In this document: positions 35,761 through 61,813 of the stretch, piece after piece
How the letters are laid out: every line of letters starts with the position of its first letter
How positions within the stretch are numbered: position 1 is the stretch's first letter
Origin: PVC group bacterium
GTDB taxonomy: Bacteria > Omnitrophota > Gorgyraeia > B26-G9
Length of the DNA: 64,000 bases
Assembly (NCBI GenBank): GCA_024231215.1
Contig: JAAEQR010000072.1
Coordinates: 385,210 to 449,209, forward strand
Direction: 5' to 3'
Translations under genes and position numbers: made by a program
Notes under the pieces: generated by a model
Database searches by the model: none
Told to the model about the DNA's origin: nothing
What the model saw: the letters and a program-made list of their open reading frames with translations, nothing else

Positions 35761-35811
35761 GGGAGGGCCTTGCGTCCTTCCGTGATAAATTTAATATTTA
35801 ATATTTAATAT

Positions 35812-36477: not shown

Positions 36478-36499
36478 TGGTTGATAGCTAATGGCTTAT
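36471..36499 (+). repeat. Tandem TAGCTAATGG repeats in the hisH-hisF spacer, inverted-repeat partner of 36979-37010
   Basis: TAGCTAATGG occurs twice at 14-nt spacing. The 15-mer TAGCTAATGGCTTAT (36485-36499) is the exact reverse complement of 36996-37010 inside hisF. Confidence 0.55.
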
Positions 36500-36577
36500 A
36501 GTGTATAGTTGGTTGATGGTTTGGGTTAGTAGTTAATAACTTATAATTAATAATTTATAATTGTCCGGAGGACAAAA

Positions 36578-37360
36578 ATGTTAGCTAAAAGAATTATCCC
36601 ATGCCTGGATGTTAAAGACGGTCGTGTGGTAAAAGGAATTAACTTTTTAAATCTGCGTGATGCAGGTGATCCGGTAGAACAAGCGGCAATGTATAGTCGA
36701 GAAGGTGCAGATGAAGTTGTTTTTCTTGATATTACTGCCAGTCATGAACACAGAAAAACTATGCTTGAAGTTGTCAAGCGAACTGCTGAGGAGGTCTTTA
36801 TTCCGTTTACAGTGGGCGGAGGCATAAAAACTTTAGCGGATATGGAAATAATACTTCGTAAAGGAGCGGATAAGGTTTCTGTAAACACAGCGGCTGTTAA
36901 AAAACCACAGTTAATTAAACAGGGATCACGAAAATTCGGGAACCAGTGTATTGTTGTGGCAATCGACGCTAAACAAAAGCTATCAGCCATTAGCCATAAG
37001 CCATTAGCTAAACAGTGGGAGGTTTATGTTTACGGGGGAAGAAACCCAACTGGAATTGATGTTCTTGAGTGGGCTAAGAAAGTGGAACAATTGGGAGCAG
37101 GGGAGATTTTGTTGACCAGTATGGATAGGGATGGAACTCAAGTAGGCTATGATTTAGAATTGACCAAAGCGGTTTCTGAAGCAGTAAGGATTCCGGTTAT
37201 AGCTTCTGGTGGAGCTGGAAATCTTCCCCATCTCTATGATGGATTGTTTCAGGGCAAAGCTGACGCAGTATTAGCAGCGTCGATTTTTCACTATGGAACC
37301 TACACGATTGGGCAAGCCAAACAATATCTTAGGAGGAGAGGACTTGCTATGAGACGATAA
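36578..37360 (+). CDS. hisF: Imidazole glycerol phosphate synthase cyclase subunit HisF
   Basis: (beta/alpha)8 barrel signature [16 protein letters not shown] (catalytic Asp11), AIDAK (second catalytic Asp), and [15 protein letters not shown]. It carries a loop insertion encoded by a repeat (see 36979-37010). Confidence 0.9.
36979..37010 (+). repeat. Intragenic (hisF) copy of the GCCATTAGC repeat, reverse complement of the spacer repeat
   Basis: GCTATCAGCCATTAGCCATAAGCCATTAGCTA encodes an in-frame loop ([10 protein letters not shown]). The 15-mer ATAAGCCATTAGCTA is the reverse complement of 36485-36499. Confidence 0.55.
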
Positions 37361-37606: not shown

Positions 37607-38881
37607 ATGAAGCTAGATAACTTTTTAAAAGATGCCAGTATAATGTTTGTCGCTACTATTGTCAGTAGTGCTTGTGCTATGTTATATCAATTATTCATGG
37701 TCCGGTCTTTGGATCCTATAGATTTTGGTGTTTTAAATACATTACTGTCTATGACAATCATTGTTTCTATGCCCACAGGCCCTCTTCAGGCGGTAGTTAC
37801 AAGGTTTGTGGCTACCTTAAAGGCTGGTAATAATTGGAGGGAAATTAGTGATTTTTTAGTATTGTTCTTTAAAAAAGTATTTGTTCTGGGTATTATAGTT
37901 TTTTTGATTTTTTTCTTATTTAGAAATAAGATTGCCGGATTTTTAAAGATTACAGATAATTATTTGATAATTATGTTCGGGTTTTTGATGATGTTTGCGA
38001 CTATCCAGCCATTTAACTTAGGAGGACTGCAGGGGTTGCAAAAATTTAAGAGCCTGGGATTGGTTAATATCATTAATGCTTTGGCACGGTTGGTTTTTGG
38101 TGTTATTTTAATAAAATTTGGTTTTAAGGTGTATGGAGCATTAGGAGCGATAATCCTGTCGGGATTACTCACAATAATATTTTCTTTTATACCGCTTAGT
38201 CCATATTTTTCTTCTCAGAAGAGAGGAGAAAAATATAACTTTAAAAGTGTAACAAAACGGTTAGATTTATTAGCTGTCTATAAGAGTTTTTTGCCGGCAT
38301 TTATTATTTTGTCTAGCTTTGGGCTTTTGACCAATATTGATATTGTTTTGGTTAAACATTTTTTTCCGGAAGCGGAGGCCGGCATTTATTCTATTGCCCA
38401 GATTTTTGGCAAAATAATTTTATTTTTACCAAGTGCGATTGTTATGGTTATGTTTCCGAAACTTACGGAAAACCATGCTAAAAAGGAAAATACAACACGC
38501 ATGCTAAAGAAAGGGCTAGTAGTAACAGGGCTGATGTGTTTTTTAGTCAGTACGGGTTTTATTATGTTTCCACAGTTGACTTTAAAATTGCTGACCGGGA
38601 AGGCTCATCTTGATGCAATTCCTTTGATTGCTCCGTTTTCGATAAGTATGAGCTTTTTTGCTTTAAATAATGTGTTTCAGTATTACCATCTTTCGACTCA
38701 TAATGTTAAAGGAGTTTATTTGTTTTTAATCGCGGTAGTATTGCAGATTTTGTTGATTTGTTTGTATCATGGCAGTTTGTTGCAAGTTTTATACGTGCTT
38801 ACCGGGTGTGCTGCTTTATTGTTTTTTGCGAACACGGTAACAATAAAAAGGATGATAAAAAATGAGAAGTTTGCAGGATAA
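37607..38881 (+). CDS. wzx: MOP-superfamily polysaccharide flippase (Wzx-like O-unit/oligosaccharide translocase)
   Basis: 424 aa with about 12 predicted TM helices and the polysaccharide-biosynthesis-protein architecture. It is the first gene of the glycan locus. Confidence 0.65.
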   Translation: MKLDNFLKDASIMFVATIVSSACAMLYQLFMVRSLDPIDFGVLNTLLSMTIIVSMPTGPLQAVVTRFVATLKAGNNWREISDFLVLFFKKVFVLGIIVFLIFFLFRNKIAGFLKITDNYLIIMFGFLMMFATIQPFNLGGLQGLQKFKSLGLVNIINALARLVFGVILIKFGFKVYGALGAIILSGLLTIIFSFIPLSPYFSSQKRGEKYNFKSVTKRLDLLAVYKSFLPAFIILSSFGLLTNIDIVLVKHFFPEAEAGIYSIAQIFGKIILFLPSAIVMVMFPKLTENHAKKENTTRMLKKGLVVTGLMCFLVSTGFIMFPQLTLKLLTGKAHLDAIPLIAPFSISMSFFALNNVFQYYHLSTHNVKGVYLFLIAVVLQILLICLYHGSLLQVLYVLTGCAALLFFANTVTIKRMIKNEKFAG

Positions 38882-46709: not shown

Positions 46710-47734
46710 TCATGAATTTACCAACAATATCTATTATTACTGTTGCTAAGAACTGTGAAGAATCATTGCTGGAATGTTATAGAAGAATAGATAGCCAGGA
46801 TTATCCTAAAGAAAAAATTGAGTTATTACTTATTGATGGCGGTTCCTGCGATGGTACGAAAGAAGTAGCCAAGAAGTATTCGGCGAGAGTTGTTGATGGA
46901 GGATACTCTGATAATCAGGAAGCAAGAAGATATGTTGGTTTCTGCGAAGCAAAAAATGACATATTAGCTTATATTGACGCGGATAATTTATTACCAGATG
47001 TTAATTGGCTTAAAGAAATGGTTCATCCTTTTGTGGATGATGCAGGAATTATCGCGACACAGACTTTAAGATATGGTTATGAGGCGAATCAAACAGCATT
47101 GAATAAATATTTTGCGTTATTCGGAGCTTGTGATCCGGTTGCTTTTTATTTGGGTAAAGCCGATAGATTGCCTTGGTTTTCAGATAAATGGAATCTGTCC
47201 GGAAAAATTGAAAAGGAAACAGATTTATATTATAAGATAAACTTCGAGGAAAATTCTTTCCCAACATTAGGCTGTAATGGTTTTTTGGTTAGAAGAAAGG
47301 TTTTTGAATCCTTAGAATGTACAGCAGAACATTTTCTTCATACTGATGTTCTTTTTGATCTTTTACAAAAGGGATTTTATAGTTACGGCATAGTAAAAAA
47401 TACGGTTATTCACGCTACGGCAAATACATATAGGCAGTTTATCGGCAAACGCATGAGGTATATGCAGACGCATCATCAACAACTGGGTGCTTGCCGTAGA
47501 TATAAAGTTTTTGATTCAAAAAAACAAAAGGATACCGTCGGGATTTTAAAATTTATTTTATTTTCAACTACAGGAATAATTCCTTTATTTGATAGTATTC
47601 GTGGATACTTGAAGGTCAGGGAAAGAGCATGGTTTTTACATCCATTTGTTTGCATTGGTTTTTTATTTGCATATGGGTATTCCTCGATAGCTCATATATT
47701 TAGTAATTGGCGAAATAGAAAGGGTTTATTATGA
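46706..47734 (+). CDS. GT2-family glycosyltransferase
   Basis: ISIITVAKNCEESL...LLLIDGGSCDGT and a DXD (IDADN) motif. Confidence 0.75.
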   Translation: MIMNLPTISIITVAKNCEESLLECYRRIDSQDYPKEKIELLLIDGGSCDGTKEVAKKYSARVVDGGYSDNQEARRYVGFCEAKNDILAYIDADNLLPDVNWLKEMVHPFVDDAGIIATQTLRYGYEANQTALNKYFALFGACDPVAFYLGKADRLPWFSDKWNLSGKIEKETDLYYKINFEENSFPTLGCNGFLVRRKVFESLECTAEHFLHTDVLFDLLQKGFYSYGIVKNTVIHATANTYRQFIGKRMRYMQTHHQQLGACRRYKVFDSKKQKDTVGILKFILFSTTGIIPLFDSIRGYLKVRERAWFLHPFVCIGFLFAYGYSSIAHIFSNWRNRKGLL

Positions 47735-48513
47735 ATCTAAAAACTGTTATTCTCGCGGGTGGATTTGGAACCAGATTGAGTGAGGAAACGAATGTTAAGC
47801 CTAAGCCGATGATAGAAATAGGGGGGAGACCGATTCTTTGGCATATAATGAAGATATATTCTGCGCATGGATTTAATGAATTTATTGTTTGTCTAGGGTA
47901 TAAAGGATATGTGATAAAAGAATATTTTGCCAACTATTTTTTACATCAGTCGGATGTTACGATTGATGTAGCAAAAAATAGTGTTGAGATTCATAAGACA
48001 ACTTCTGAGCCTTGGAAAATTACGCTTGTTGATACCGGACCGGATACTTTAACCGGAGGGAGGATAAAAAAAATCCAGCCGTATATAGATAATAAGACTT
48101 TCATGTTAACCTATGGCGATGGCGTGGGAGATATCAATATAAAAGAACTAGTGAAAGTGCATAAGAGTCATAAGAAATATGCGACATTGACCGCTGTACA
48201 ACCAATTGGCAGGTTCGGGGCCTTGGAAATAGGTAAAGATGATACTGTTACCAATTTCCATGAAAAGCCTCGAGGCGATGGAATGTATATAAACGGAGGG
48301 TTTTTTGTCTTGGAACCGCAGGTTTTTGATTATATAAAAGATGATCATCATATGTGGGAAGAAGAACCGTTAGAATTGTTAGCACAAAATAAGCAATTGG
48401 CTGCGTATCAACATAACGGATTTTGGAAATGCGTAGATACTTTGCGTGATAAAAGAGATTTAGAATTAATGTGGGATGCTGGAAAAGCTCCTTGGAAAAT
48501 ATGGCATGAGTAG
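47731..48513 (+). CDS. rfbF: Glucose-1-phosphate cytidylyltransferase RfbF/DdhA
   Basis: KTVILAGGFGTRLSEETNVKPKPMIEIGGRPILWHIMKIYSAHGFNEFIVCLGYKGYVIKEYF is the canonical RfbF N-terminus. Confidence 0.9.
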   Translation: MNLKTVILAGGFGTRLSEETNVKPKPMIEIGGRPILWHIMKIYSAHGFNEFIVCLGYKGYVIKEYFANYFLHQSDVTIDVAKNSVEIHKTTSEPWKITLVDTGPDTLTGGRIKKIQPYIDNKTFMLTYGDGVGDINIKELVKVHKSHKKYATLTAVQPIGRFGALEIGKDDTVTNFHEKPRGDGMYINGGFFVLEPQVFDYIKDDHHMWEEEPLELLAQNKQLAAYQHNGFWKCVDTLRDKRDLELMWDAGKAPWKIWHE

Positions 48514-49411
48514 AAAATCTAAAATTTTACTTACCGGTGCGACTGGTTTTCTAGGGTCTCATTTATTGTCTGGATTGATTGATAATGACTACGAAGTGAT
48601 TATTTTAAAGAGATCGTTTGATCCTGTATGGAAAATAAAGGATTTGCAGACACGGATTAAAAGCTATGATCTGGACAAGTCAGATCTTGAAGATGTTTTT
48701 AAAGAGAATAAAATAGACATTATTATTCATCTGGCGACAGATTACGGTAAGGATAGTAAAAGTAAAGTAAACCGGGTGATTAGTACTAATATAGAATTTC
48801 CAGCTAGGTTAATGGAACTAGCTGTGAATTATGAGATTAAATTTTTTGTAAATACGCATACGGCTTCTCCAAGCACATATTTATTCTATTCTGCGACAAA
48901 AAATGCTTTTCTAGAAATTGCAGGGTTTTATGCTGCTAATCATAACCTTTCGTTTGTGAATATGGTTATAGAGTATATGTACGGAGAGCGGGATGATGAT
49001 ATAAAATTTATTCCGGCTATAATAAATAAAATCTTTAAAGGGGAAGAAATTAAAGCAAGTGGAGGAGAGCAAGAGAGAGATTTTATTTATGTGGGGGATG
49101 TGGTTAATGCGTATTTATTATTACTTAAAAAAACAGATAACATTAAAGATGATTTTACGGAATTTAATATTGGGACAGGGGATGTGATGTCCTTTAGAAC
49201 GTTTATTGAAAAAATCGAAAAAAGCATTGAAAAAAAAGCTATAGTTAGCTGGGGAGCTGTACCTTATCGAAAAAATGAGCTGTTTTACTCAAAAGCTGAT
49301 ATTAGCCATATTAATCAAGTGCTAGGATGGTCTCCTGAAGTTTCTTTAGAACAAGGATTATTGAATACAGTCGGCTGGTATCGAAACCAGCAGGAGGATA
49401 ATAGTCAATGA
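48506..49411 (+). CDS. NAD(P)-dependent CDP-4-keto-3,6-dideoxyhexose 4-reductase-like (paratose/abequose synthase-like) SDR
   Basis: I chose the ATG at 48506 (MSRKSKILLTGATGFLGSHL), which overlaps the rfbF stop. YxxxK (YSATK) and the QERDFIYVGDV motif are present. Located between rfbF and rfbG, as prt/abe are in Salmonella and Yersinia. Confidence 0.5.
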   Translation: MSRKSKILLTGATGFLGSHLLSGLIDNDYEVIILKRSFDPVWKIKDLQTRIKSYDLDKSDLEDVFKENKIDIIIHLATDYGKDSKSKVNRVISTNIEFPARLMELAVNYEIKFFVNTHTASPSTYLFYSATKNAFLEIAGFYAANHNLSFVNMVIEYMYGERDDDIKFIPAIINKIFKGEEIKASGGEQERDFIYVGDVVNAYLLLLKKTDNIKDDFTEFNIGTGDVMSFRTFIEKIEKSIEKKAIVSWGAVPYRKNELFYSKADISHINQVLGWSPEVSLEQGLLNTVGWYRNQQEDNSQ

Positions 49412-50505
49412 TTGATATAATTTCTAAATATAAAAATAAAAGAGTGCTGGTTACCGGACATACCGGATTTAAGGGTAGCTGGATGTCCTTATGGCTAAGC
49501 CAGCTTGGAGCTAAGGTTATTGGATATTCCTTGGAGCCACCGACAAGCCCGAGTTTGTTTGAGGCTATTGGTTTGAAGAAACAGATTACGCATATTATAG
49601 CAGATATAAATGATCAGAAGCGTTTAGATGCTGTTTTTAAAAAATATCGTCCTCAAGTAGTATTTCATTTAGCGGCGCAGCCCTTAGTAAGGTTGTCTTA
49701 TAAATCACCGGTGTCTACTTATCAGACAAATGTTATGGGAACGGTGAATGTCTTAGAAGCTGTACGAAAAACTAAAAGTGTTCGGGCGTGTCTTGTGGTT
49801 ACCAGTGATAAGTGTTATGAAAATAAAGAATGGATTTATGGATATCGGGAATCTGATCCAATGGGAGGATATGATCCTTATAGTTCAAGTAAGGGATGTG
49901 CGGAATTAGTAGTTTCTGCGTATAGGAACTCGTTTTTTGCTCCCAAAGAATATGGCAAAGCTCACAGTGTTTCTCTGGCCTCGGCCCGTTCCGGTAATAT
50001 TATCGGTGGGGGGGACTGGGGAGAAGATAGGCTTGTGCCGGATTGTGTTAGAGCTTTATCAAAAAATAAAACAATTATGATTCGTAATCCTTATGCGACA
50101 AGACCTTGGCAATATGTACTTGAACCTTTATCAGGATATCTTCTGCTGGGGGGCCGGATGCTTGAAGATGCGGTTGCTTTTAGCGGTCCCTGGAATTTTG
50201 GCCCTAGCAGTAATGAGGCTTTGCCGGTAAAAGATATTGTTAAACTTGTGTTGTCTTGCTGGGGAGATGGTAAATATAAGATAGAACGTGGTAGAAAAGC
50301 GCATGAGGCGCACTTATTACAGCTTGATGCGAGTAAGGCTCACAAGTTATTGGGATGGAAATCAGTTTATTCAATGAACGAAAAAATGACTCGAACAGTA
50401 AACTGGTATAAAAAATTTTATGACAATATGGGTAAAAGCGCTTTATTGAGGCAAACCTCAGAAGATATAGATCAATATGTTAAAAGGATAAGTGTGCTTG
50501 ATTAA
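49408..50505 (+). CDS. rfbG: CDP-glucose 4,6-dehydratase RfbG/DdhB
   Basis: VLVTGHTGFKGSWMSLWL, SDKCYEN and YSSSK catalytic motifs typical of CDP-glucose 4,6-dehydratase. Confidence 0.85.
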   Translation: MIDIISKYKNKRVLVTGHTGFKGSWMSLWLSQLGAKVIGYSLEPPTSPSLFEAIGLKKQITHIIADINDQKRLDAVFKKYRPQVVFHLAAQPLVRLSYKSPVSTYQTNVMGTVNVLEAVRKTKSVRACLVVTSDKCYENKEWIYGYRESDPMGGYDPYSSSKGCAELVVSAYRNSFFAPKEYGKAHSVSLASARSGNIIGGGDWGEDRLVPDCVRALSKNKTIMIRNPYATRPWQYVLEPLSGYLLLGGRMLEDAVAFSGPWNFGPSSNEALPVKDIVKLVLSCWGDGKYKIERGRKAHEAHLLQLDASKAHKLLGWKSVYSMNEKMTRTVNWYKKFYDNMGKSALLRQTSEDIDQYVKRISVLD

Positions 50506-50506
50506 T

Positions 50507-51820
50507 ATGAAGAATGATTCAAAACTAAGAAGAAAAATCTTAGGCGATGTAAAAAAGTTTTATTTGGAACAGAAGGGGAAAGATAAGTTTGTGCCGGGAA
50601 AGTCAAGAGTTCCTTATGCCGGACGTGTGTTTGACGAAAAAGAGTTGGTTGATCTGGTTGACTCGTCTTTGGATTTCTGGCTGACTGCCGGAAGATATGC
50701 TCAGAAACTAGAAAAACAGCTGGCTGATTTTTTAGGGGTAAAACATGCCTTACTTGTAAATTCCGGGTCATCTGCCAATCTTTTAGCTGTAAGTGCCTTG
50801 ACGTCGCCTTTATTAAAGAAAAAACGCTTAAAACCAGGCGATGAGGTGATTACTACTGCTTGTGGATTCCCAACTACGCTTAATCCGATTTTACAGAACC
50901 AGTTAAAACCGGTAATTCTTGATATTGAACTGGGTACATACAATATTGATACAACAAAGCTTAAACAGGCGATTACAAAGAAAACAAAAGCTATTTTTGT
51001 GGCGCATACACTTGGCAACCCGTTTAATTTAGATGCGGTATTAAAGATAGCTAAAAAACATGATTTATTTGTTATTGAAGATAATTGTGATGCATTAGGT
51101 TCAAAATATAAAGGACAGTTTACTGGAACTTATGGTCATATTGCGACATTGAGTTTTTATCCGGCGCATCACATGACGATGGGAGAAGGAGGCGCGGTTT
51201 TAACTAGTGATCCGGTTTTAAGAAGAGCTTTGCTTTCTTTGCGTGACTGGGGGCGTGACTGCTGGTGTGACCCGGGAAAAGATGATACCTGCTGTAACCG
51301 TTTCACCCAAAAGTTTGGGGAATTACCGTTTGGATATGACCATAAATATGTATATTCACATATAGGTTATAATTTAAAAGTTACAGATATGCAAGCGGCA
51401 ATAGGCGTGGCTCAATTAAAAAAATTGAATAGTTTTATTAAAAAGCGTAAAGATAATTTTGCTTTTTTGCATAAAAATCTTAAAAAGTTTAATAAAAATT
51501 TATTATTGCCGGAAGCGACAAAACATTCCAATCCAAGTTGGTTTGGTTTTCCGATAATTGTAATGCCGTCGGCTAAATTCAATCGTGATGATATTGTTAA
51601 GTTTCTAGAGAATAATAAAATAGCAACACGCATGCTTTTTGGCGGGAATCTTATTAAACAGCCGGCATATTCCGGAATTAAGATGAAGGTTGTTGGTGAA
51701 TTGAAAAATACAAATTTAGTAATGAATAATCTATTCTGGATTGGAGTATATCCTGGAATAGGTAGTAAACAGCGTGCTTACATGGTTGATAAGATGAATG
51801 AATTTATGGATAAATGGTGA
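50507..51820 (+). CDS. rfbH: CDP-6-deoxy-D-xylo-4-hexulose 3-dehydrase (E1, RfbH/DdhC), PMP- and [2Fe-2S]-dependent
   Basis: DegT fold with His replacing the PLP-Lys (SFYPAHHMT). Cys motif C-X57-C-X1-C-X7-C (NCDALG...DCWCDPGKDDTCC) matches the E1 Fe-S ligands. RfbH-type N-terminus FVPGKSRVPYAGRVFDEKE. Confidence 0.85.
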   Translation: MKNDSKLRRKILGDVKKFYLEQKGKDKFVPGKSRVPYAGRVFDEKELVDLVDSSLDFWLTAGRYAQKLEKQLADFLGVKHALLVNSGSSANLLAVSALTSPLLKKKRLKPGDEVITTACGFPTTLNPILQNQLKPVILDIELGTYNIDTTKLKQAITKKTKAIFVAHTLGNPFNLDAVLKIAKKHDLFVIEDNCDALGSKYKGQFTGTYGHIATLSFYPAHHMTMGEGGAVLTSDPVLRRALLSLRDWGRDCWCDPGKDDTCCNRFTQKFGELPFGYDHKYVYSHIGYNLKVTDMQAAIGVAQLKKLNSFIKKRKDNFAFLHKNLKKFNKNLLLPEATKHSNPSWFGFPIIVMPSAKFNRDDIVKFLENNKIATRMLFGGNLIKQPAYSGIKMKVVGELKNTNLVMNNLFWIGVYPGIGSKQRAYMVDKMNEFMDKW

Positions 51821-51852: not shown

Positions 51853-52896
51853 ATGAAAAAAGCTTTAATTACCGGAATAACCGGACAGGATGGCTCTTAT
51901 TTAGCTGAGTTTTTATTGTCTAAGGGATACGAGGTGCATGGTATTATTCGCCGGGCTAGTACTTTTAATACTGGGCGTTTAGAGCATATTTTTATGGATG
52001 AACATGATCCTAATGCTAAGTTATTTTTGCATTACGGAGATTTGGCGGATGCCGAACAGATTTCCGGTTTGATTTATAATATAAAACCGGCTGAGATCTA
52101 TCACCTGGGAGCGCAAAGTCATGTACGAGTGAGTTTTGATATGGCAGAATATTCGGGAAATATTACGGGATTAGGTACTACTCGTATTCTCGAAGCGATT
52201 CGCAGGAGTGGAATCAAGGCAAAATTCTATCAGGCTTCAAGTAGTGAAATGTTTGGAGCGGCAAAACCTCCACAACATGAGAAGACAATATTTCATCCCC
52301 GCAGTCCATATGCTTGCGGCAAAGTTTATTCTTACTGGATGGTCCGGAATTATCGGGATGGTTATAATATTTTTGCTTCTAATGGTATTCTTTTTAATCA
52401 TGAAAGCCCTCGCCGCGGCGAAACATTTGTAACGCGTAAAATTACGCGTGCGGTTGCGGCGATTATGGCTGGAAAACAGAAATATCTTTATATGGGTAAT
52501 CTTGATGCGAGAAGAGACTGGGGATTTGCGCCGGAATATGCAGAACTTATGTGGAAAATTCTGCAGCAGAAGAAAGCAGATGATTTTGTGTTAGGGGTAG
52601 GAGAATCTCATTCAGTAAAGGATTTTGTAGAAACAGCTTTTTCTTATGTGGGAATGAATTGGAAAAAGTATGTAAAAACAGATGCTAGATATTTTCGTCC
52701 GACGGAGGTCGAAAGTTTAATTGCAGATGCTTCTAAAGCAAGGAAAACGCTAAAATGGAAAGCCAAGATAAAATACAAAGATTTAGTTAAGATTATGGTC
52801 GATGCGGATTTAAGAAGAGCCGGATTAGAAGCTGTGGGAGAAGGCGATAAGATATTGAAAAAGAAATTCCCTCAGAAATGGTGGAAAGCAGATTGA
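51853..52896 (+). CDS. gmd: GDP-mannose 4,6-dehydratase
   Basis: [33 protein letters not shown] (YxxxK) and NHESPRRG motifs. Confidence 0.9.
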
Positions 52897-52911
52897 TCCA
52901 AGGAGGGAATA

Positions 52912-54129
52912 ATGCGAAAAATATCAGTAGGCTGGTTGGAAATAGGGGAAAAAGAAAAAAAAGCAGTAAATGATGTGCTGGATTCCGGCAGGATATCGGA
53001 AGGACCGGTAACAGCGGAATTTGAAAAAAAATGGGCTGAATTTATCGGTACACGTTATTGTCTGACAACAAGTTCAGGAACTGCAGCGCTAATCACAGTG
53101 CTTACGGCATTTAAACATCTTTATGATTTAGAAAAACGACCTAAAGTTATAACTTCTCCGCTTACATATATTTCAGATGCTAATGCGATAGTTCTGAGTG
53201 GATTGGAACCGGTGTTTGTTGATATAGATCCGGAAACGTTTTGTATTACTCCGGAAGCTATAGAAAATCATTTGAGTCAGGTAGCTGATCCGGAAAAATA
53301 CAGCATTCTTTTACCGGTTGACTTAATAGGGTATTCTGTAAAGATTGATGAAATAAAAAGAATTGCTCAAAAGTATGATTTACTGGTACTTGAAGATGCG
53401 GCTGAAGCGCATGGGACTATGTATAAGGGGAAATGCAGCGGAGCGGATGCACATGCTGGTATATATTCTTTTTATATCGCACATAATATACAAGCAGGAG
53501 AAATGGGTGCGATCACCACAAATGATGAAAAGATCTTTACTTTGTGTAAACAGTTAAAAGCAAATGGAAGATTTTGTGAATGTACTGTCTGTACTCGGGC
53601 TAAAGGAGTTTGTCCCGGGTTACAGTCGCTGCCTGAGAACGAAGATTTTGATCCTCGTTTTTTACATGAAGTAATTGGATATAATTTTAAAACTATGGAA
53701 TTTCAGCCGGCAATAGCTTTGGCTCAAATGGAAAATATTCCGTATATAATTAAAAGGCGGCAGGAAAACATTGCTGCATTGAACAAAGGGCTAGAGGAGT
53801 TTGCTGATATTTTACAGCTTCCTTTACATGATGAAAATGTAAGCTACTTGGCTTATCCTTTGGTTATTAAGAATACTTCAGCTATATCTAGAAAAAAACT
53901 CCGTAAAGAATTGGAAGAACATGGAGTGGAGACAAGGCCTTTATTTGGCTGTATTCCTACTCAGCAACCGGCCTATGAATATATGCGTAAAGCCTACCAG
54001 GGACGTATTCCTCATGCTGAATATGCGGGAGCTAATGGTTTTTATATTGGCTGTCATCAATATCTTACAGATGAAGATATTGCTTATACTATATCAATTT
54101 TTAAGAAGATATTAGGGGAAACACGATGA
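52912..54129 (+). CDS. DegT-family sugar-nucleotide dehydratase (ColD/E1-like; His in place of the PLP-Lys) with a Cys-rich insertion
   Basis: SFYIAHNIQAGEMG has His where aminotransferases have Lys. The insertion RFCECTVCTRAKGVCPG (CxCx2Cx6C) plus two further nearby Cys is a candidate metal/Fe-S site. Located between gmd and the fcl-like gene. Confidence 0.6.
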   Translation: MRKISVGWLEIGEKEKKAVNDVLDSGRISEGPVTAEFEKKWAEFIGTRYCLTTSSGTAALITVLTAFKHLYDLEKRPKVITSPLTYISDANAIVLSGLEPVFVDIDPETFCITPEAIENHLSQVADPEKYSILLPVDLIGYSVKIDEIKRIAQKYDLLVLEDAAEAHGTMYKGKCSGADAHAGIYSFYIAHNIQAGEMGAITTNDEKIFTLCKQLKANGRFCECTVCTRAKGVCPGLQSLPENEDFDPRFLHEVIGYNFKTMEFQPAIALAQMENIPYIIKRRQENIAALNKGLEEFADILQLPLHDENVSYLAYPLVIKNTSAISRKKLRKELEEHGVETRPLFGCIPTQQPAYEYMRKAYQGRIPHAEYAGANGFYIGCHQYLTDEDIAYTISIFKKILGETR

Positions 54130-55070
54130 TACCTAAAAATTCACGGATTTATATTGCAGGACATACTGGGATGGTGGGAAGAGCTTTGGGTAAAGTGCTT
54201 AAAAGAAAAGGTTATAGTCAGTTAATCGTTAGGACATCTAAGGAGATGGATTTAAGAAATCAAAAAAAGGTTGATGATTTCTTTAAAAAAGAAAAACCGG
54301 ATTATGTATTTCTTTTTGCCGCAAAAGTCGGAGGTATTAAAGCTAATATTGCAGCTCCCTCGGATTTTTTATATGACAATCTGGTAATTGAAACCAATGT
54401 TATTAATTCCAGTTATAAGCAGCAGGTTAAAAAGCTGCTTTATTTAGGCAGCTCCTGTATTTATCCTAGACTTTGTCAGCAGCCGATGAAGGAAGATTAT
54501 TTGCTGAGCGGTAAATTAGAACCAACTAATGAGGGGTATGCATTGGCGAAAATTGTGGGATTAAAACTGTGTGAATATTATAACCAGCAGTTTGAGACTA
54601 ATTTTATTGCGTTAATGCCGCCAAATCTTTACGGGCCTCATGATAATTTTGATTTAGAATCTTCACATGTTGTTGCTGCGTTAATTAGAAAATTTCTTGA
54701 AGCAAAACAAGGCAACTTGCCTTTTGTCGAAATTTGGGGTTCGGGGAATGCTCGACGGGAATTTCTTTATGTTGAAGATTTAGCTGATGCATGTTTTTAT
54801 TTCATTAGTAAATATAATAGCAAAGATTTCCCTTCGTTTATTAATGTAGGCTATGGAAAAGATGTTAATATCAAAAGCCTTGTTGGAATTATTAAAAAGG
54901 AAATTGGGTATAAGGGGCAGATCAGGTGGAATCCTAAGATGCCTGATGGGATGCCGCGGCGTTTAATGGATATTTCGCAGTCGAAAAAAATGGGTTGGCA
55001 GCCGAAAACTTCTTTGCAAGATGGCATTGGGAAAACATTGCGTTGGGTATTAAAAAATTCATGGAAGTAG
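54126..55070 (+). CDS. fcl: GDP-L-fucose synthase-like (Fcl/WcaG) or GDP-L-colitose synthase-like (ColC) 3,5-epimerase/4-reductase
   Basis: RIYIAGHTGMVGRAL, LYLGSSCIYP, YALAK (YxxxK). Fcl and ColC cannot be separated by inspection. Confidence 0.75.
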   Translation: MIPKNSRIYIAGHTGMVGRALGKVLKRKGYSQLIVRTSKEMDLRNQKKVDDFFKKEKPDYVFLFAAKVGGIKANIAAPSDFLYDNLVIETNVINSSYKQQVKKLLYLGSSCIYPRLCQQPMKEDYLLSGKLEPTNEGYALAKIVGLKLCEYYNQQFETNFIALMPPNLYGPHDNFDLESSHVVAALIRKFLEAKQGNLPFVEIWGSGNARREFLYVEDLADACFYFISKYNSKDFPSFINVGYGKDVNIKSLVGIIKKEIGYKGQIRWNPKMPDGMPRRLMDISQSKKMGWQPKTSLQDGIGKTLRWVLKNSWK

Positions 55071-55078
55071 GGCGGAAA

Positions 55079-56269
55079 ATGAAGGTAGTATTAGCTTCGC
55101 ATGTTTGGGTTACCGGGCCATGTCATGAGATTAAGAAATATATTCTTCGAAGAGACAAAGGTACGTTATTATATATAACCCATCCGCTATATTATCATGA
55201 CAGACTTAATGGCAGTGGATATGAGTTGTATAGCGATGGGAAGCTTGTTCGTGAACAGTATAATAAAATTCGCAAAATCCCCGAAATCATTAACTATTTT
55301 AGTGCTTTTTTTCGGAATATATTATATGTTTTCAGGACCAGGGAATCGTATGATGTATATATTGGATTTAATAACTTGAATGCTTTGGCCGGATGGTTTT
55401 TGAAAAAAATTGGTAAAGTAAATAGATGTGTGTATCATGTAGTTGATTATACCCCGCAGCGTTTTGACAATAAGCTCTTAAATTTTATATATCATCGCAT
55501 AGAAAGTTTTTGTGCGGTTCATTGTGATGAAACCTGGAACTTGTCGGGGCGAATGGTTGATGCCCGGGAACATTTTAAAGGACTTCGTCGGGAATTATGT
55601 GGTGTGCAGAAAGTTGTTCCAATGGGGATATGGGATGAGGAGATGGTCAGGTTTGATTTTGAATCAGTACATAAAACGCAGCTTGTTTTTATGGGGCATC
55701 TTCTGAAAAAGAACGGGGTGCAGTTTGTATTAGATGCGGTTCCTTTGATTATTGAAAAAATTCCGAAGTTTACTTTCTTGGTGATTGGCGATGGGGAATA
55801 TTTGGGGAAACTTAAGGCGCAAGTTTCCAGACTAAAAATTGATAAATGCGTGCGATTTGCCGGATATGTAGAAGATCATGCTGAAATCGAACGGATGATT
55901 GCTAAATCAGCGTTGGCAATTGCTTTATATGAATCCGGCAATAAAGAAAAGAACTGGACGTACTATACTGATCCAGGTAAAATAAAAGTCTATTTGGGGA
56001 GTGGGGTTCCGGTATTATTATCAGATGTGCCTCCAAATGCCAGGGAAATAGAGAAAGAACAATGCGGTAAAATTGTAGATTTAGCTCCCAAGGATATTGC
56101 TGCTGCAGTAGTTTTAATGCTGCAAGATCCGGAACTTTTACGTATTTACCGCAAAAACGCTCTTGCGTATAGTAAGCAGTTTGACTGGCAAAAGATGCTG
56201 GATAAAGCGTTTATTTTTGATAATAATCATGCCACTTCGCCCGGAAAAGTGACTTGTGTGTGGAAATAA
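55079..56269 (+). CDS. GT-B fold glycosyltransferase (GT4-like), paralog of 62648-63796
   Basis: I chose the ATG at 55079 after the GGAAG/GGCGGA RBS. The C-terminal half is about 50% identical to the last GT of the window (VFMGHLLKK.GVQ...YYTDPGK.KVYL..GVPVLL.D.P.NAREIE). Confidence 0.6.
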   Translation: MKVVLASHVWVTGPCHEIKKYILRRDKGTLLYITHPLYYHDRLNGSGYELYSDGKLVREQYNKIRKIPEIINYFSAFFRNILYVFRTRESYDVYIGFNNLNALAGWFLKKIGKVNRCVYHVVDYTPQRFDNKLLNFIYHRIESFCAVHCDETWNLSGRMVDAREHFKGLRRELCGVQKVVPMGIWDEEMVRFDFESVHKTQLVFMGHLLKKNGVQFVLDAVPLIIEKIPKFTFLVIGDGEYLGKLKAQVSRLKIDKCVRFAGYVEDHAEIERMIAKSALAIALYESGNKEKNWTYYTDPGKIKVYLGSGVPVLLSDVPPNAREIEKEQCGKIVDLAPKDIAAAVVLMLQDPELLRIYRKNALAYSKQFDWQKMLDKAFIFDNNHATSPGKVTCVWK

Positions 56270-57321: not shown

Positions 57322-58884
57322 ATGGCCAATATTTTATTTGTTGATAAGGGGATACCGAGCATAGGCATTGCTTATATGGCTTCATTTTTAAAAAAATATG
57401 GACATAGAGTGCATTATCTGCGGGCATCTTTAAAATCCATGTTTTCTCCTAACGTTGAGATTGATGTTGATAGTTATATAAAAAATAAATTAGGTAATAA
57501 AGTAGATATTTTCTGTTTTTCGGTCATGGCGATCGATTGGGGGTGGGTAAAGGGAAAAATATCAATTTTAAAAAAGAAATATCCAAAAACTCCTATTTTA
57601 GTTGGAGGTTCATTTGCCACATTATCTCCAGAGGTTATTTTGCGTGATTCTGAGGCTGATTATGTTTGTAACGGAGATGGTGAAAAACCGCTTTTAGCTA
57701 TTGCCCAGAGCCTGGATTCTAAGACACTAGTTAAAGATGTAGAAGCAATAGATAACATTGGATATAAAAAAAACGGGGAATCTGTGATAAAAGACATGTC
57801 CTATCAGGTTGATAATCTGGATGATTATCCTTTTCCTGATTTTAGTATTTATCATGGGCAGTTTTCCAGAGATTTTTTTGTCAATCCCCGGTTAATAACA
57901 AGCCGGGGATGTTCGTTTTCATGTACTTACTGTTCCTGCCCGAATTTAAACAAATTGTACTCGAAAACCGGAAAATTTGTGCGACGACACTCTGTTCCTT
58001 ATATGATCGAATTTTTATCTAAGATGAAGGATGCTTATAAAAGCAAAAATTTCACATTTAACGATGATATTTTTTTTCTTGATAAAAAATGGTTAAAAGA
58101 TTTTGCGCGTGAATATAAAAAGAAAATAAATGTGCCTAATATATGTATAGGTAATCCTAATTTTATTGATGATGAAGTCGCTGAATCATTAAAAGAGATA
58201 CGGTGTAGATTGGTTATTCTGGGGTTACAAAGTGGGTCAGAAGAGGTTAGGAAAAAATTGCGAAGATCTGAAAGTAATTCTAAAGTAGTAGAGATAACAC
58301 GTTGTTTAAAGAAAGCTTCAGTAAGTTTTTCTATAAACCATATTTTTGATTTACCTTTTGATACTGTAAATAATATCCAAGAAAGTGCGGGCTTATATAA
58401 TAAAGTCAGGCCGAATATGCTAGACACATTTTCTTTGGCATATTTTCCTAAGGCGGAAATCATAAAAGACGCTGTAGCTGCGGGGAGATTATCCGAAGAA
58501 GATGTTATCCAGATAGAATCCGGAAAATGCAGCGGACAAATTAATCCGTATAAACACCAGGCAAAGACTAATTATCAATGTTATAATCTTTTTTTTAACA
58601 TGATTCCGGTATTGCCCAAAAAAGTAATAAATTTTTTAATATCACCTAAGAGATTTCAGCGTGTTTGCAGACTATTTTCTTATTTACCGGGAGAGGTGTC
58701 TGCGTTAATAAAATTGTGCCTTGCTTTCAAAAATCACACACAGTTTATACAAACTAGTGCTTTTCATGAAATCATATTCTATATTAACTATAAGTGGCAA
58801 TTTAAATTACGCAATGTATTTACTTCTCTAAGTCAAAAATATAACAAGAATACAAGTTCAGTTGTGGGCAATGTAACCAGTTAG
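57322..58884 (+). CDS. B12-binding-domain radical SAM enzyme 1 of a tandem triplet
   Basis: N-terminal B12-binding-like Rossmann (ILVGGSFATL). CX3CX2C motif (GCSFSCTYC). Long C-terminal domain. Confidence 0.75.
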   Translation: MANILFVDKGIPSIGIAYMASFLKKYGHRVHYLRASLKSMFSPNVEIDVDSYIKNKLGNKVDIFCFSVMAIDWGWVKGKISILKKKYPKTPILVGGSFATLSPEVILRDSEADYVCNGDGEKPLLAIAQSLDSKTLVKDVEAIDNIGYKKNGESVIKDMSYQVDNLDDYPFPDFSIYHGQFSRDFFVNPRLITSRGCSFSCTYCSCPNLNKLYSKTGKFVRRHSVPYMIEFLSKMKDAYKSKNFTFNDDIFFLDKKWLKDFAREYKKKINVPNICIGNPNFIDDEVAESLKEIRCRLVILGLQSGSEEVRKKLRRSESNSKVVEITRCLKKASVSFSINHIFDLPFDTVNNIQESAGLYNKVRPNMLDTFSLAYFPKAEIIKDAVAAGRLSEEDVIQIESGKCSGQINPYKHQAKTNYQCYNLFFNMIPVLPKKVINFLISPKRFQRVCRLFSYLPGEVSALIKLCLAFKNHTQFIQTSAFHEIIFYINYKWQFKLRNVFTSLSQKYNKNTSSVVGNVTS

Positions 58885-58897
58885 GATATAATGGATT

Positions 58898-60346
58898 ATG
58901 AATGCTTCGATAAATGATACTAGTGGAATCCGTTGTTTTTTACTTGTGCCTCCGGAAGAAAAAACAAAAAAAGATAATGAAGTAGGACAAGAAGGGATTT
59001 TTCCTCCGTTAGGATTAGCATATTTAGCTGCTGTTTTAAGAAACAATAATATTCAGGTGAAGATTTTTGATGCACTTGCTAGCCGTTTAAGTATGGAAGA
59101 TGTTTGTGAGATTATTCAACGTGAAAAACCTGATTTTTGCGGTATTACTGTTTTGTCGCAACAAATAAAAGCAGTTCAAAAACTAGTAGCAAAACTTAAA
59201 ATAATATCTCCCTCAACCAAAATTGTGCTGGGGGGACCTCATATTCACTTTGAACATGAAAATGTTATAATTGATTCTAATGTTGATTTTTGTGTAAGAG
59301 GAGAAGGTGAGGAGACTGTTCTTGAATTAATCCAAGCGGTTAATAAAAAAACGGATTTACGGGTAGTCAAAGGCATAGTTTTTAAAGACGAGAACAATAA
59401 AGTAGTAATTAATGAGCAACGGCAATATATAAAAAATTTGGATGAGATTCCTTTTCCGGCGCGGGATTTGCTGCCGATGCAGACTTATAAAGCTCCCATA
59501 TCTTTGGGAAGCCCGGGAAGGCCGTTTACTTCGGTTTTGGCAACGAGAGGATGTCCATTTAAATGCCATTATTGTTCTCTTACCGCGATGTGGGGGAATC
59601 AACGTAGAAGATCAGTCGAAAACGTTCTTGATGAACTAGAGGAATTACAGGAAAAATATGGCATAAAATATGTTAGTTTTGTTGATGATCTTCTTGTCGT
59701 AAATAAAAAATGGGCTATTGCGCTTTGTCAAGGTATGAGAGAAAGAGGGATTAATATTGAATGGGATTGTTGCGGCCGGATTGGAGTGATGGACGAGGAG
59801 CTTTTATTAGAAATGAAAAAGGCAAATTGTCGATGTGTGATTTATGGTATTGAATTTGGAAGTCAGAAAATACTCGATTGGATTCAACGGTGTTACACAA
59901 TACAGCAGGTTATAGATACTGTTGAAATGACAGCGAAAGCAAAAATACCAATAAAAGGGTTATTTATGATGGGCTATCCGACAGAAACAAAGGAAACTTT
60001 GCAGGAAACTATATCGTTAGCTAAAAAACTCAAATTAGATTATGTAACACTTTCTATTGTGGCTCCGTATTCCGGAACTAAGTTATATGAATATTGTAAG
60101 GAAAACAACGTACTTTGTGATATGGACCAAAAGGGTAAAGATGTATTACAACTTCGCTATAAAGCAATTGCTTTAGAACATTTAACCGTAGATGATCTCA
60201 TTAATTATTATAAAAAGTTTTATTTTGCGTACATTATGCGTCCATCTTATATTTGGTTAATGCTTACTCGTCATCCACAAAAAGTATTAGCGTTTGGTCC
60301 GAGATTTTTAAAATGGTTATTTTTAGGCAAATGGGAGAATAGTTAA
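58898..60346 (+). CDS. B12-binding-domain radical SAM enzyme 2 of a tandem triplet
   Basis: B12-binding-like domain (IVLGGPH). CX3CX2C motif (GCPFKCHYC). Paralogous to the flanking rSAM genes. Confidence 0.75.
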   Translation: MNASINDTSGIRCFLLVPPEEKTKKDNEVGQEGIFPPLGLAYLAAVLRNNNIQVKIFDALASRLSMEDVCEIIQREKPDFCGITVLSQQIKAVQKLVAKLKIISPSTKIVLGGPHIHFEHENVIIDSNVDFCVRGEGEETVLELIQAVNKKTDLRVVKGIVFKDENNKVVINEQRQYIKNLDEIPFPARDLLPMQTYKAPISLGSPGRPFTSVLATRGCPFKCHYCSLTAMWGNQRRRSVENVLDELEELQEKYGIKYVSFVDDLLVVNKKWAIALCQGMRERGINIEWDCCGRIGVMDEELLLEMKKANCRCVIYGIEFGSQKILDWIQRCYTIQQVIDTVEMTAKAKIPIKGLFMMGYPTETKETLQETISLAKKLKLDYVTLSIVAPYSGTKLYEYCKENNVLCDMDQKGKDVLQLRYKAIALEHLTVDDLINYYKKFYFAYIMRPSYIWLMLTRHPQKVLAFGPRFLKWLFLGKWENS

Positions 60347-60352
60347 TAGTAC

Positions 60353-61813
60353 ATGAAAGATAAAATGAAAATTATCCTTTTTCGCCCCAATTATGACGTG
60401 CATGTTGTTTTTCCTCCCATGGCTTTGGGCTATTTGGCTGCGTCGTTGATCAAGGAAGGACATCAAGTTGATATTTATGATGGTACACTTAAGAATTCTT
60501 CAACGCAGGATTTTTTAAAAGAAATAGAAGAAACAGCTCCTGATTTGATCGGGATAACGGTTATGAGCCGAGGCCATGCAAAGGTTAGAGATGTTGTTAA
60601 GCTGATAAAAAATACGTGTGATATTCCTATAGTAATTGGCGGTCCTCAGGTAACAGCATTACCCGAGATTGTGTTGAAGGATATTGGTGCAGATTTTGCT
60701 GTTTTTGGTGAAGGAGAGATAACTATTTGTGAGCTTGCACAAGCAATGGTTTCAGGCAAGCAGAGCTATGATTCTATAAATGGATTAGCTTATGTGGCAA
60801 AAGACGGGACCATTATTGTGAATAACCCGCGGGAACTTATAAAAGACTTAGATCAAATTTCATTTCCGGCATGGCAGCTTATGAATCCTGCGGATTATCG
60901 GATTGTACCGATTTTAGCCCCAGCCAAAGGATATCCTATCGCGCCGATTGTAACTTCCCGGGGTTGTCCTTTTCTGTGTACCTTTTGTGCTTCAAATGTA
61001 ACATGGAAAAATAAATTTCGAGTTAGAAGTCCGGAAAATGTAGTAGATGAAATTAAACTTCTTGTTGAAAAATTTGGCGTGCGTGAAATATATATAACAG
61101 ATGATAATCTTACTTTAAATAGAAAACATGCCGAAGCTATTTGTGATGAAATAATGAAGGCTGGACTTAAGATTTCCTGGCAATGCCCGAATGGAGTGAG
61201 GATTGATCATCTTGATCAGAAACTTTTGGCAAAGATGAAAAAAGCAGGGTGTTATAGTGTAGGCTTAGGTATCGAGTCTGCTAATAAGGAAATTCTTTGT
61301 AATATTAAGAAACAGCTTGATCTTTCTGTTGTTAAGAAAGTTCTGATTGATTTAAAAAAAGCTGGAATTATGTCGTATGGTTTTTTTGTTTTTGGCTTGC
61401 CGGGGGAAACGCACGAGACCATTCGTGAAACTATTGATTTTGCTAAAAATAATCCTTTTGACCGTGCATGGTTTAATATTTTAACTCCCTATCCCGGGTC
61501 TGAAATATTTAATGATTGGATTGGCGAACGTTCCTTTGCTGATATTGATTGGGAGACTCATGACGGCAGTACGGCGGTTATTGATACGGTAGAGTTGTCT
61601 AGTGCGGAATTAGAGGAGTATCAAACAAAAGCTGTGAGGGAATTTTATTTGCGGCCGCGGATTGTACTTTCTCTTATGCGGCATATTAGAATTAAGCAAA
61701 TAATAACTATATCTATGACCAGGTTTTTTAAGAAAAGGTATAATATTTTCAAAATAATCCACCAAGCAGCACATTTTTTTGTAAGAAAACGAGTTAAGCA
61801 AAAGACAAACTAA
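60353..61813 (+). CDS. B12-binding-domain radical SAM enzyme 3 of a tandem triplet
   Basis: B12-binding-like domain (IVIGGPQ). CX3CX2C motif (GCPFLCTFC). The C-terminal domain is shared with the neighbouring rSAM genes. Confidence 0.75.
   Translation: MKDKMKIILFRPNYDVHVVFPPMALGYLAASLIKEGHQVDIYDGTLKNSSTQDFLKEIEETAPDLIGITVMSRGHAKVRDVVKLIKNTCDIPIVIGGPQVTALPEIVLKDIGADFAVFGEGEITICELAQAMVSGKQSYDSINGLAYVAKDGTIIVNNPRELIKDLDQISFPAWQLMNPADYRIVPILAPAKGYPIAPIVTSRGCPFLCTFCASNVTWKNKFRVRSPENVVDEIKLLVEKFGVREIYITDDNLTLNRKHAEAICDEIMKAGLKISWQCPNGVRIDHLDQKLLAKMKKAGCYSVGLGIESANKEILCNIKKQLDLSVVKKVLIDLKKAGIMSYGFFVFGLPGETHETIRETIDFAKNNPFDRAWFNILTPYPGSEIFNDWIGERSFADIDWETHDGSTAVIDTVELSSAELEEYQTKAVREFYLRPRIVLSLMRHIRIKQIITISMTRFFKKRYNIFKIIHQAAHFFVRKRVKQKTN

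Follow-up and report, generated by a model that had tools for sequence, protein, structure and literature searches.

A widespread subfamily of His-type DegT-fold enzymes with a four-cysteine loop, predicted to act as GDP-4-keto-6-deoxymannose 3-dehydratases

A gene found in a polysaccharide cluster of a PVC group bacterium (Omnitrophota; contig JAAEQR010000072.1) is predicted to specify a 3-dehydratase for GDP-4-keto-6-deoxymannose that bears a cysteine loop of the kind seen in the iron-sulphur (Fe-S) enzyme E1. The stretch of DNA analysed, 64,000 nucleotides in length and referred to here as the window, contains this open reading frame (ORF; the target) between gmd, which encodes a GDP-mannose 4,6-dehydratase, and a gene for a short-chain dehydrogenase/reductase (SDR) similar to the GDP-fucose synthase Fcl (Table 1); an earlier note on this DNA, made from the sequence, had identified both neighbours correctly. 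The best-supported conclusion is that the target represents a distinct, widespread and uncharacterised subfamily of DegT-fold enzymes in which a His takes the place of the Schiff-base Lys. The pairing of a GDP-sugar context with an E1-type cysteine loop in a single 3-dehydratase seems not to have been described before.

Active site and cysteine loop

The target protein is identical to NCBI entry MCP4649284.1, which derives from a PVC group bacterium metagenome-assembled genome (MAG) and is annotated as a 'DegT/DnrJ/EryC1/StrS family aminotransferase'. The domain PF01041 (DegT/DnrJ/EryC1/StrS) is precomputed for the target and for all its homologues, and 56 PDB members of the DegT family match it at E<1e-5. 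Aminotransferases acting on nucleoside diphosphate (NDP) sugars carry their Schiff-base Lys in an S-x-x-x-x-K motif; at this place the target has SFYIAHN (residues 186–192), the catalytic position being occupied by an invariant His191. Since His191 replaces the Schiff-base Lys family-wide, the database name 'aminotransferase' is misleading. His191 aligned with His220 of E1 and His188 of ColD, while Tyr188 and Leu313, both invariant or nearly invariant in the family, aligned with Y217 and F345 of E1; the His typical of aminotransferases was not present. Judged by these three active-site residues, the target would be an NDP-hexose 3-dehydratase of the type that uses pyridoxamine 5′-phosphate (PMP), as the earlier note had proposed from the His-for-Lys substitution.

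Beyond the catalytic His, the segment RFCECTVCTRAKGVCPG (residues 220–236) bears Cys at positions 222, 224, 227 and 234. The resulting CxCx2Cx6C motif, which had also been noticed earlier, proved to be invariant and to occur in no characterised GDP-sugar 3-dehydratase. When the target was aligned with HMMER to E1 (PDB entry 3BCX), C222 fell on C251 and C224 on C253, at 31 and 33 residues past the catalytic His in both proteins; the earlier note, which had located the cysteines elsewhere in the fold than the E1 ligands, was therefore mistaken. Describing the loop as an insertion is correct relative to ColD, the loop of which (GWTRNLPKKNKVTGVKSDDQF) is ~7 residues shorter and contains no Cys, but not relative to E1. 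The 3BCX sequence has Cys at residues 193, 251, 253 and 261, which we take to be the [2Fe-2S] ligands of E1; Agnihotri and colleagues reportedly assigned them in 2004, as C193 plus C251-x-C253-x7-C261. Among the solved structures, Cys residues at these loop positions were found in E1 only, and neither ColD nor the 3-dehydratase 9WVY has any.

Conservation was assessed in 120 database homologues sharing 56–70% identity with the target. C222, C224 and C234 were kept in 120/120, as were H191 and N192, and C227 was kept in 119/120 (one Tyr). When each GTDB species was represented by a single genome, a scan detected a relative in 182 species and returned 80 loci; adding context loci L001–L004 gave 84 genomic copies, bacterial and archaeal, and the CxCx2Cx6C motif and AHN were both present in 84/84. 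The conservation of the cysteine motif is far above chance. The position equivalent to C193 of E1 was occupied by Ala in 114/120 homologues and by Ser in 6/120. The two additional cysteines that the earlier note had counted within 40 residues of the motif were not conserved: C212 was kept in 18/120 homologues and C175, which lies 47 residues before C222, in 1/120, and both were rejected as cluster ligands. C347 and C381 were rejected as well; they are conserved, yet they are also found in relatives without loop Cys, and a ligand role for them would be unlikely.

The hosts among the 80 listed genomes belonged nearly all to anaerobic lineages, including Omnitrophota, Scalindua/Brocadiales (anammox), Dehalococcoidia, Clostridia/Peptococcaceae, Elusimicrobia, Methanobacteriaceae, Methanoperedens, Bathyarchaeia and DPANN. 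Such a bias would be expected of an enzyme that has an oxygen-labile cofactor or depends on a low-potential ferredoxin, and constitutes circumstantial evidence for either. At least one carrier of a homologue, Methanobrevibacter cuticularis DSM 11139 (L052; NZ_LWMW01000154.1), is cultured and would offer direct experimental access to the family.

Position of the target relative to E1, ColD and other 3-dehydratases

The best PDB matches of the target were E1 (3BCX; 187.8 bits, 2.7e-54, ~30% identity) and ColD (2GMS; 144.2 bits, 4.7e-41, 25–26% identity). The target scored below every NCBIfam equivalog cutoff, including that of RfbH (NF011936), for which it reached 225 bits against a cutoff of 423. 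In a rough neighbour-joining (NJ) tree of 144 representatives, its clade was separate from the one containing E1 and ColD (ColD_Eco), and at 25–26% identity it is not a close relative of the latter. The label 'ColD-like' used in the earlier note thus suits the gene context and not the sequence, in which E1 is nearer; the alternative label offered there, an E1 paralogue, is too narrow given the RfbH score, the lack of the C193 ligand and the separate NJ clade. The target belongs to neither the E1 nor the ColD family, with its sequence nearer to E1.

In a profile search against 1.84 billion representatives, the target family emerged as one 50%-identity cluster (605 bits), beyond which His-type relatives with loops of various kinds formed a continuum. 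Besides the CxCx2Cx6C type of the target, these included a longer CxCx2Cx9-13C type, the E1-type CxCx7C and several Cys-less types, among them that of ColD ('GWxR...') and a large 'GRDSIYLSIDDDD' group. Cys-loop and Cys-less groups were interleaved in the NJ tree, and the cysteine loop may be either an old feature lost more than once or one acquired more than once, alternatives between which so crude a tree does not decide. A structural model produced by AlphaFold2 (AF2) from a 33-sequence alignment had a mean predicted local distance difference test (pLDDT) value of 87 and a predicted template modelling (TM) score of 0.87. Foldseek against the PDB gave TM values of 0.84 to E1 and 0.83 to perosamine synthase, i.e. 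a generic DegT fold by which E1 is not distinguished from aminotransferases.

Two relatives met in these searches are worth recording. P0134 (758 residues) is a Cys-less His-type DegT protein interrupted by an intein (Intein_splicing plus LAGLIDADG_3, residues ~166–514) located just past the conserved 'ED..' strand. A 429-residue protein encoded at 6201–7490 (minus strand) of L025, an archaeal MAG locus, occupies a middle position between the target family and RfbH, with a score of 312 bits against the RfbH of the window; it has a 'SFFVAHNITCGEGG' active site and a loop starting with 'CTCPIC', and its gene lies 3.8 kb from the target's homologue.

The target resembles E1 (RfbH/DdhC/AscC, the CDP-6-deoxy-L-threo-D-glycero-4-hexulose 3-dehydrase of Yersinia pseudotuberculosis) in its His at the Schiff-base position, in a CxC at identical positions and in the further loop Cys that follow. 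In contrast to E1, it has Ala164 for C193 and an extra in-loop Cys227, so that CxCx2Cx6C, with its last Cys shifted, stands in place of CxCx7C plus a remote Cys. It also has AHN where E1 has AHH, an N-terminus ~35 residues shorter, and gmd rather than rfbF/rfbG as its neighbour, and no E3 (AscD/RfbI) partner gene was found for it in the window. The target shares with ColD (WbdK; E. coli O55, Y. pseudotuberculosis) an upstream gmd, an Fcl-homologous epimerase/reductase alongside, a His-type active site and, as predicted here, the substrate and product. Unlike the target, ColD has the shorter Cys-free loop described above and SHH instead of AHN, and works with pyridoxal 5′-phosphate (PLP) and glutamate, without an Fe-S cluster (PMC8987622, PMC10440746).

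According to a 2022 review, the NDP-sugar 3-dehydratases that have been characterised are E1 and SpnQ, which have a [2Fe-2S] cluster, and ColD, which has none (PMC8987622). SpnQ, the dTDP-4-keto-2,6-dideoxyglucose 3-dehydratase of Saccharopolyspora spinosa, is a PMP/[2Fe-2S] enzyme that has no dedicated E3 and receives its electrons from general ferredoxin/flavodoxin reductase pairs (PMC8987622), and it provides the electron model proposed here for the target. The likeness is one of described properties, and SpnQ differs in acting on a dTDP-linked 2,6-dideoxy substrate in actinomycete secondary metabolism. The GDP-heptose C3-dehydratases described in C. jejuni in 2023 are 62–67% identical to ColD and use PLP and glutamate, every characterised GDP-linked C3-dehydratase being a ColD-type PLP/glutamate enzyme (PMC10440746). 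An Fe-S-containing GDP-sugar 3-dehydratase was not found in the literature searched, most subscription papers being outside its reach, and this is absence of evidence only; the motif string had no match in the same literature. Compact loops that start with CxC and have a third ligand 8–9 residues further on are known from mitoNEET/CDGSH proteins, in which the motif C-x-C-x8-C-x3-H binds [2Fe-2S]. Their fold is unrelated and their ligation is 3Cys-1His, and the analogy goes only as far as the fact that such a spacing can hold a 2Fe-2S cluster.

Genomic context, proposed reaction and alternatives

Gene context was compared in 81 non-duplicate loci, a true gmd being defined by ≥280 bits to the gmd of the window and an Fcl-like SDR by ≥140 bits. 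A true gmd was present within 6 kb of the target's homologue in 34/81 loci, spread over many bacterial and archaeal phyla, and was directly upstream in 23 of them. An Fcl-like SDR lay directly downstream of the homologue in 25/81, and the complete triad was present in 14 loci, the hosts of which belong to Planctomycetota, Omnitrophota, Clostridia, Patescibacteria, Methanoperedens, Bathyarchaeia, Thermoplasmata, Altiarchaeia and others. A CDP-glucose 4,6-dehydratase with a similarly high score lay near the homologue in one locus only. In the window, the stop codon of the target overlaps the start of the next gene (ATGA, 54126–54129), and this overlap together with a strong Shine-Dalgarno sequence indicates that the target is translationally coupled within an operon. 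With gmd upstream and a 4-reductase/epimerase downstream, the context supports the C-3 deoxygenation predicted for the target.

Other recurrent neighbours of the homologues were glycosyltransferases of families 2 and 4 (GT2 and GT4), flippases and B12-binding radical S-adenosylmethionine (SAM) proteins. Multidomain relatives contained, according to Pfam, fusions to a methyltransferase, GT2, GT4 or an RmlD-like 4-ketoreductase. RfbH accompanies the target's homologue in seven loci besides the window (L003, L012, L013, L015, L038, L076 and L081). In L038, the homologue also adjoins a gene similar to GT10 fucosyltransferases; since colitose is 3-deoxy-L-fucose, this neighbour fits a GDP-L-6-deoxyhexose donor. 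An apparent RfbH fusion of 806 residues in L013 was rejected as a read-through across masked bases. In L013 (1417–2376) and L015 (2131–3093), a 320-residue ORF without a Pfam match lies between gmd and the target's homologue. These two contigs are near-identical and are labelled Methanofastidiosum and Peptococcaceae SCADC1_2_3; the same contig under two such distant taxonomic labels suggests a binning error or a recent transfer.

Among the nearest Cys-less relatives (P0122, P0132 and P0131), no Cys-less orthologue in a gmd context was seen: they were located, respectively, in a phage-like contig, in a short contig where the neighbours had no family match, and beside an unclassified SDR, and the proposal was not refuted by them. 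In the first case (L086/L087/L088; gene at 6001–7863 of L086), a methyltransferase is fused to a His-type DegT domain without the Cys loop, and the contig also contains Portal_Mu, a ClpP-type protease, many small ORFs, an SDR, GT4 genes and a PfkB kinase; it possibly represents a phage-encoded deoxysugar pathway.

The target is probably, with good confidence, a 3-dehydratase acting on the product of gmd, the presumed substrate being GDP-4-keto-6-deoxy-D-mannose. The three genes gmd, target (C-3 deoxygenation) and Fcl/ColC-like epimerase-reductase would then form a GDP-3,6-dideoxyhexose (colitose-type) branch. In the mechanism proposed, PMP would form a ketimine with C-4 of GDP-4-keto-6-deoxy-D-mannose, after which His191 would take the C-4′ proton and the 3-OH would be expelled, yielding a Δ3,4-mannoseen-PMP adduct. 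The adduct would be reduced in two one-electron steps via an Fe-S cluster, most likely [2Fe-2S], held by Cys222/224/227/234, whereas ColD hydrolyses the adduct and has its PMP regenerated from glutamate. As has been reported for SpnQ, electrons would be supplied by a ferredoxin or flavodoxin system of general use; the resulting GDP-4-keto-3,6-dideoxymannose would be the substrate of the downstream SDR, which would epimerise and reduce it before the glycosyltransferases of the polysaccharide cluster make use of the sugar. We infer the substrate, the identity and redox role of the metal, the electron donor and the final sugar. That the whole chain holds, from a 3-dehydratase that acts on GDP-4-keto-6-deoxymannose and holds Fe-S by four in-loop Cys, through E1-like reductive chemistry driven by general ferredoxin/flavodoxin electrons, to a colitose-type product, appears an evenly balanced proposition.

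The presence of a metal site is suggested by the distribution of cysteines among His-type representatives. The Cys equivalent to C193 was kept in 13/13 three-Cys loops and in 13/39 four-Cys loops (Fisher p = 3e-5, by a test that takes no account of phylogeny), a pattern by which four thiolates are always available. It seems that the remote Cys is needed only if three thiolates come from the loop. This is as expected for a four-ligand metal site, and supports the view that Cys222/224/227/234 may form a self-sufficient ligand set; the ligand count fits Fe-S and Zn alike. The occurrence of four invariant Cys in the loop that carries the cluster in E1 argues against a metal-free enzyme. Given a genuine and invariant motif that none of the characterised GDP-sugar 3-dehydratases has, an Fe-S-dependent GDP-4-keto-6-deoxymannose 3-dehydratase is a reasonable hypothesis, and binding of a redox-active Fe-S cluster by the loop is, to our mind, mildly favoured.

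A number of points, the neglect of phylogeny mentioned above among them, weigh against this assignment. The metal of the target is a prediction from the sequence, and four Cys in 13 residues could equally hold a structural Zn. The fourth ligand would be the in-loop C227 and not C193 as in E1, because of which neither the cluster type nor the redox potential of E1 is transferable. In the AF2 model, the segment 220–260 reached pLDDT values of only 60–67, and residues 192–194 remained below 50; values this low are typically seen where a region that depends on a cofactor or metal is modelled in its absence. No E3-like reductase (rfbI/ascD), ferredoxin or flavodoxin was detected in the window by a regex scan of all ORFs, no reductase, ferredoxin or flavodoxin appeared among the conserved neighbours (neighbour clustering of the 81 loci, and Pfam on upstream 'other' genes), and no redox carrier was fused to the multidomain relatives according to Pfam. 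The missing reductase carries little weight in this organism, since the bona fide E1 of the window has no linked E3 either. As for the substrate, more than half of the homologous loci have no adjacent gmd, and some members may use other NDP-sugars; the downstream SDR is ~50% identical to genuine GDP-fucose synthase and could simply be Fcl.

The alternative that survives best is a ColD-type mechanism, with enamine hydrolysis and PMP obtained from L-glutamate, in which the role of the four Cys would be structural only: the Zn or Fe-S cluster bound by them would make the loop more rigid at the active site or dimer interface. The colitose pathway has the same gmd/Fcl-like context, and although CxCx2Cx6C is compatible with a tetrahedral Zn, the loop is positionally homologous to the proven redox-active [2Fe-2S] site of E1 (PMC8987622). 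The lack of a linked reductase or ferredoxin in the window, in the conserved neighbours and in the fusions agrees with this mechanism, but it is uninformative in this organism, since the genuine RfbH/E1 of the same operon is in the same situation. The interleaving of Cys-less His-type clades (ColD and the 'GRDSIYLSIDDDD' group) with Cys-loop clades indicates that the chemistry is possible without loop Cys; set against this are the anaerobe-biased hosts predicted for an oxygen-labile cofactor, and a compensation between loop Cys and C193 that mirrors the ligand set of E1, although Zn would give the same pattern. All considered, ColD-type chemistry in the target seems unlikely, while deserving to be kept in mind. 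It is a good deal more improbable that the target is a PMP/Fe-S enzyme for GDP-heptose or a CDP- or dTDP-4-keto-6-deoxyhexose, or performs another His-dependent transformation, with the gmd and Fcl-like genes of the window making GDP-L-fucose: a true gmd is missing within 6 kb in 47/81 loci, but many of these gmd-less contigs are short or truncated; several of the 47 have other SDRs or a cytidylyltransferase-like gene nearby instead, but gmd is the only NDP-sugar 4,6-dehydratase recurrently directly adjacent (23 loci), with overlapping or closely spaced starts; the downstream SDR is near bona fide Fcl (330 bits to the E. coli GDP-fucose synthase 1BSV), but the target gene lies between gmd and the reductase, where an enzyme using the gmd product would be expected; and a complete CDP-hexose branch lies immediately upstream, but it has its own full-scoring RfbH (712 bits).

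If the target is an Fe-S enzyme acting on GDP-sugars, it would fill the combination missing beside E1 (CDP, Fe-S), SpnQ (dTDP, Fe-S) and ColD (GDP, no metal), and would be a natural ligand-swap variant of the unusual cluster site of E1. E1 is reported to be the sole enzyme in which PMP takes part in one-electron redox chemistry. The same reading would place colitose-type 3,6-dideoxyhexoses in the surface glycans of many uncultivated anaerobes and archaea, and would put right the 'aminotransferase' label attached systematically to this whole family, seen in at least 120 database clusters and in the representative genomes of 182 species. A wider and more tentative idea, which on balance we doubt, is that of a third lineage of NDP-sugar 3-dehydratases, performing C-3 deoxygenation of GDP-sugars by PMP/Fe-S one-electron chemistry with a self-contained four-Cys cluster and a generic low-potential ferredoxin. 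This would be the prevalent colitose-type route in anaerobic bacteria and archaea, including methanogens; the loop would be ancestral to all His-type DegT dehydratases, and ColD a derived, oxygen-tolerant and glutamate-consuming form from which the loop was lost.

Neighbouring genes in the window

The features of the target and its neighbourhood are collected in Table 1. The polysaccharide cluster extends from ~37.6 kb to the end of the window. The SDR downstream of the target keeps the SSCIYP and GPHDNF catalytic motifs, and would fit either Fcl or the Fcl-homologous colitose synthase ColC. Homologues of the glycosyltransferase that follows it, a candidate transferase of the product sugar, were found within 6 kb of the target's homologue in 9–10 loci.

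Table 1. Coordinates of the target, its sequence features and neighbouring genes (positions in the window)
Feature	Position	Strand	Remarks
Target ORF	52912..54129	+	405 residues; His-type (PMP-type) DegT-fold enzyme of a distinct 4-Cys-loop subfamily; predicted GDP-4-keto-6-deoxymannose 3-dehydratase
Shine-Dalgarno AGGAGGG	52901..52907	+	5–11 nt before the target ATG; read from the sequence
Ala164 codon	53401..53403	+	aligns with E1 Cys193 (E1 'EDCCDALG', target 'EDAAEAHG')
His191-Asn192 codons	53482..53487	+	His instead of the Schiff-base Lys of sugar aminotransferases
CxCx2Cx6C loop (Cys222/224/227/234)	53575..53613	+	predicted metal or Fe-S cluster ligands
RfbH/E1, bona fide	50492..51820		NF011936, 712.3 bits; CxCx7C plus C193-equivalent Cys; two genes upstream of the target
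gmd, GDP-mannose 4,6-dehydratase	51853..52896	+	TIGR01472 equivalog, 488.6 bits (cutoff 415)
Fcl/ColC-like SDR	54126..55070	+	NF047922 (GDP-fucose synthase), 424.7 bits, below the cutoff of 500; predicted GDP-4-keto-3,6-dideoxymannose 5-epimerase/4-reductase, GDP-L-colitose synthase-like
GT1/GT4-type glycosyltransferase	54995..56269	+	Pfam Glyco_trans_1_4 and Glycos_transf_1

Directly before gmd lies a complete CDP-3,6-dideoxyhexose branch (47731–51820), composed of rfbF (429.8 bits), an SDR gene (48476–49411), rfbG (498.8 bits) and RfbH; the cluster of the window appears to make two different 3,6-dideoxyhexoses. Three tandem genes for B12-binding radical SAM proteins (57322–61813; 520, 482 and 486 residues) are located inside the glycan cluster. 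Their homologues occur within 6 kb of the target's homologue in ~24/81 loci, a recurrent association that may reflect methylation or another radical modification of the sugar or glycan. At 35032–37360, genes for an NAD-synthase-like protein, a class-I glutamine amidotransferase and a HisF-like protein stand in a row before a Wzx-like flippase gene (37607–38881), a trio that presumably resembles the sugar amidotransferase sets of the WbuX/Y/Z type. On the scale of the whole window, 53 of the 56 ORFs of at least 150 residues are on the plus strand, and the GC skew is strongly and uniformly positive (0.14–0.30 in every 2-kb interval) at a GC content of 34–40%.

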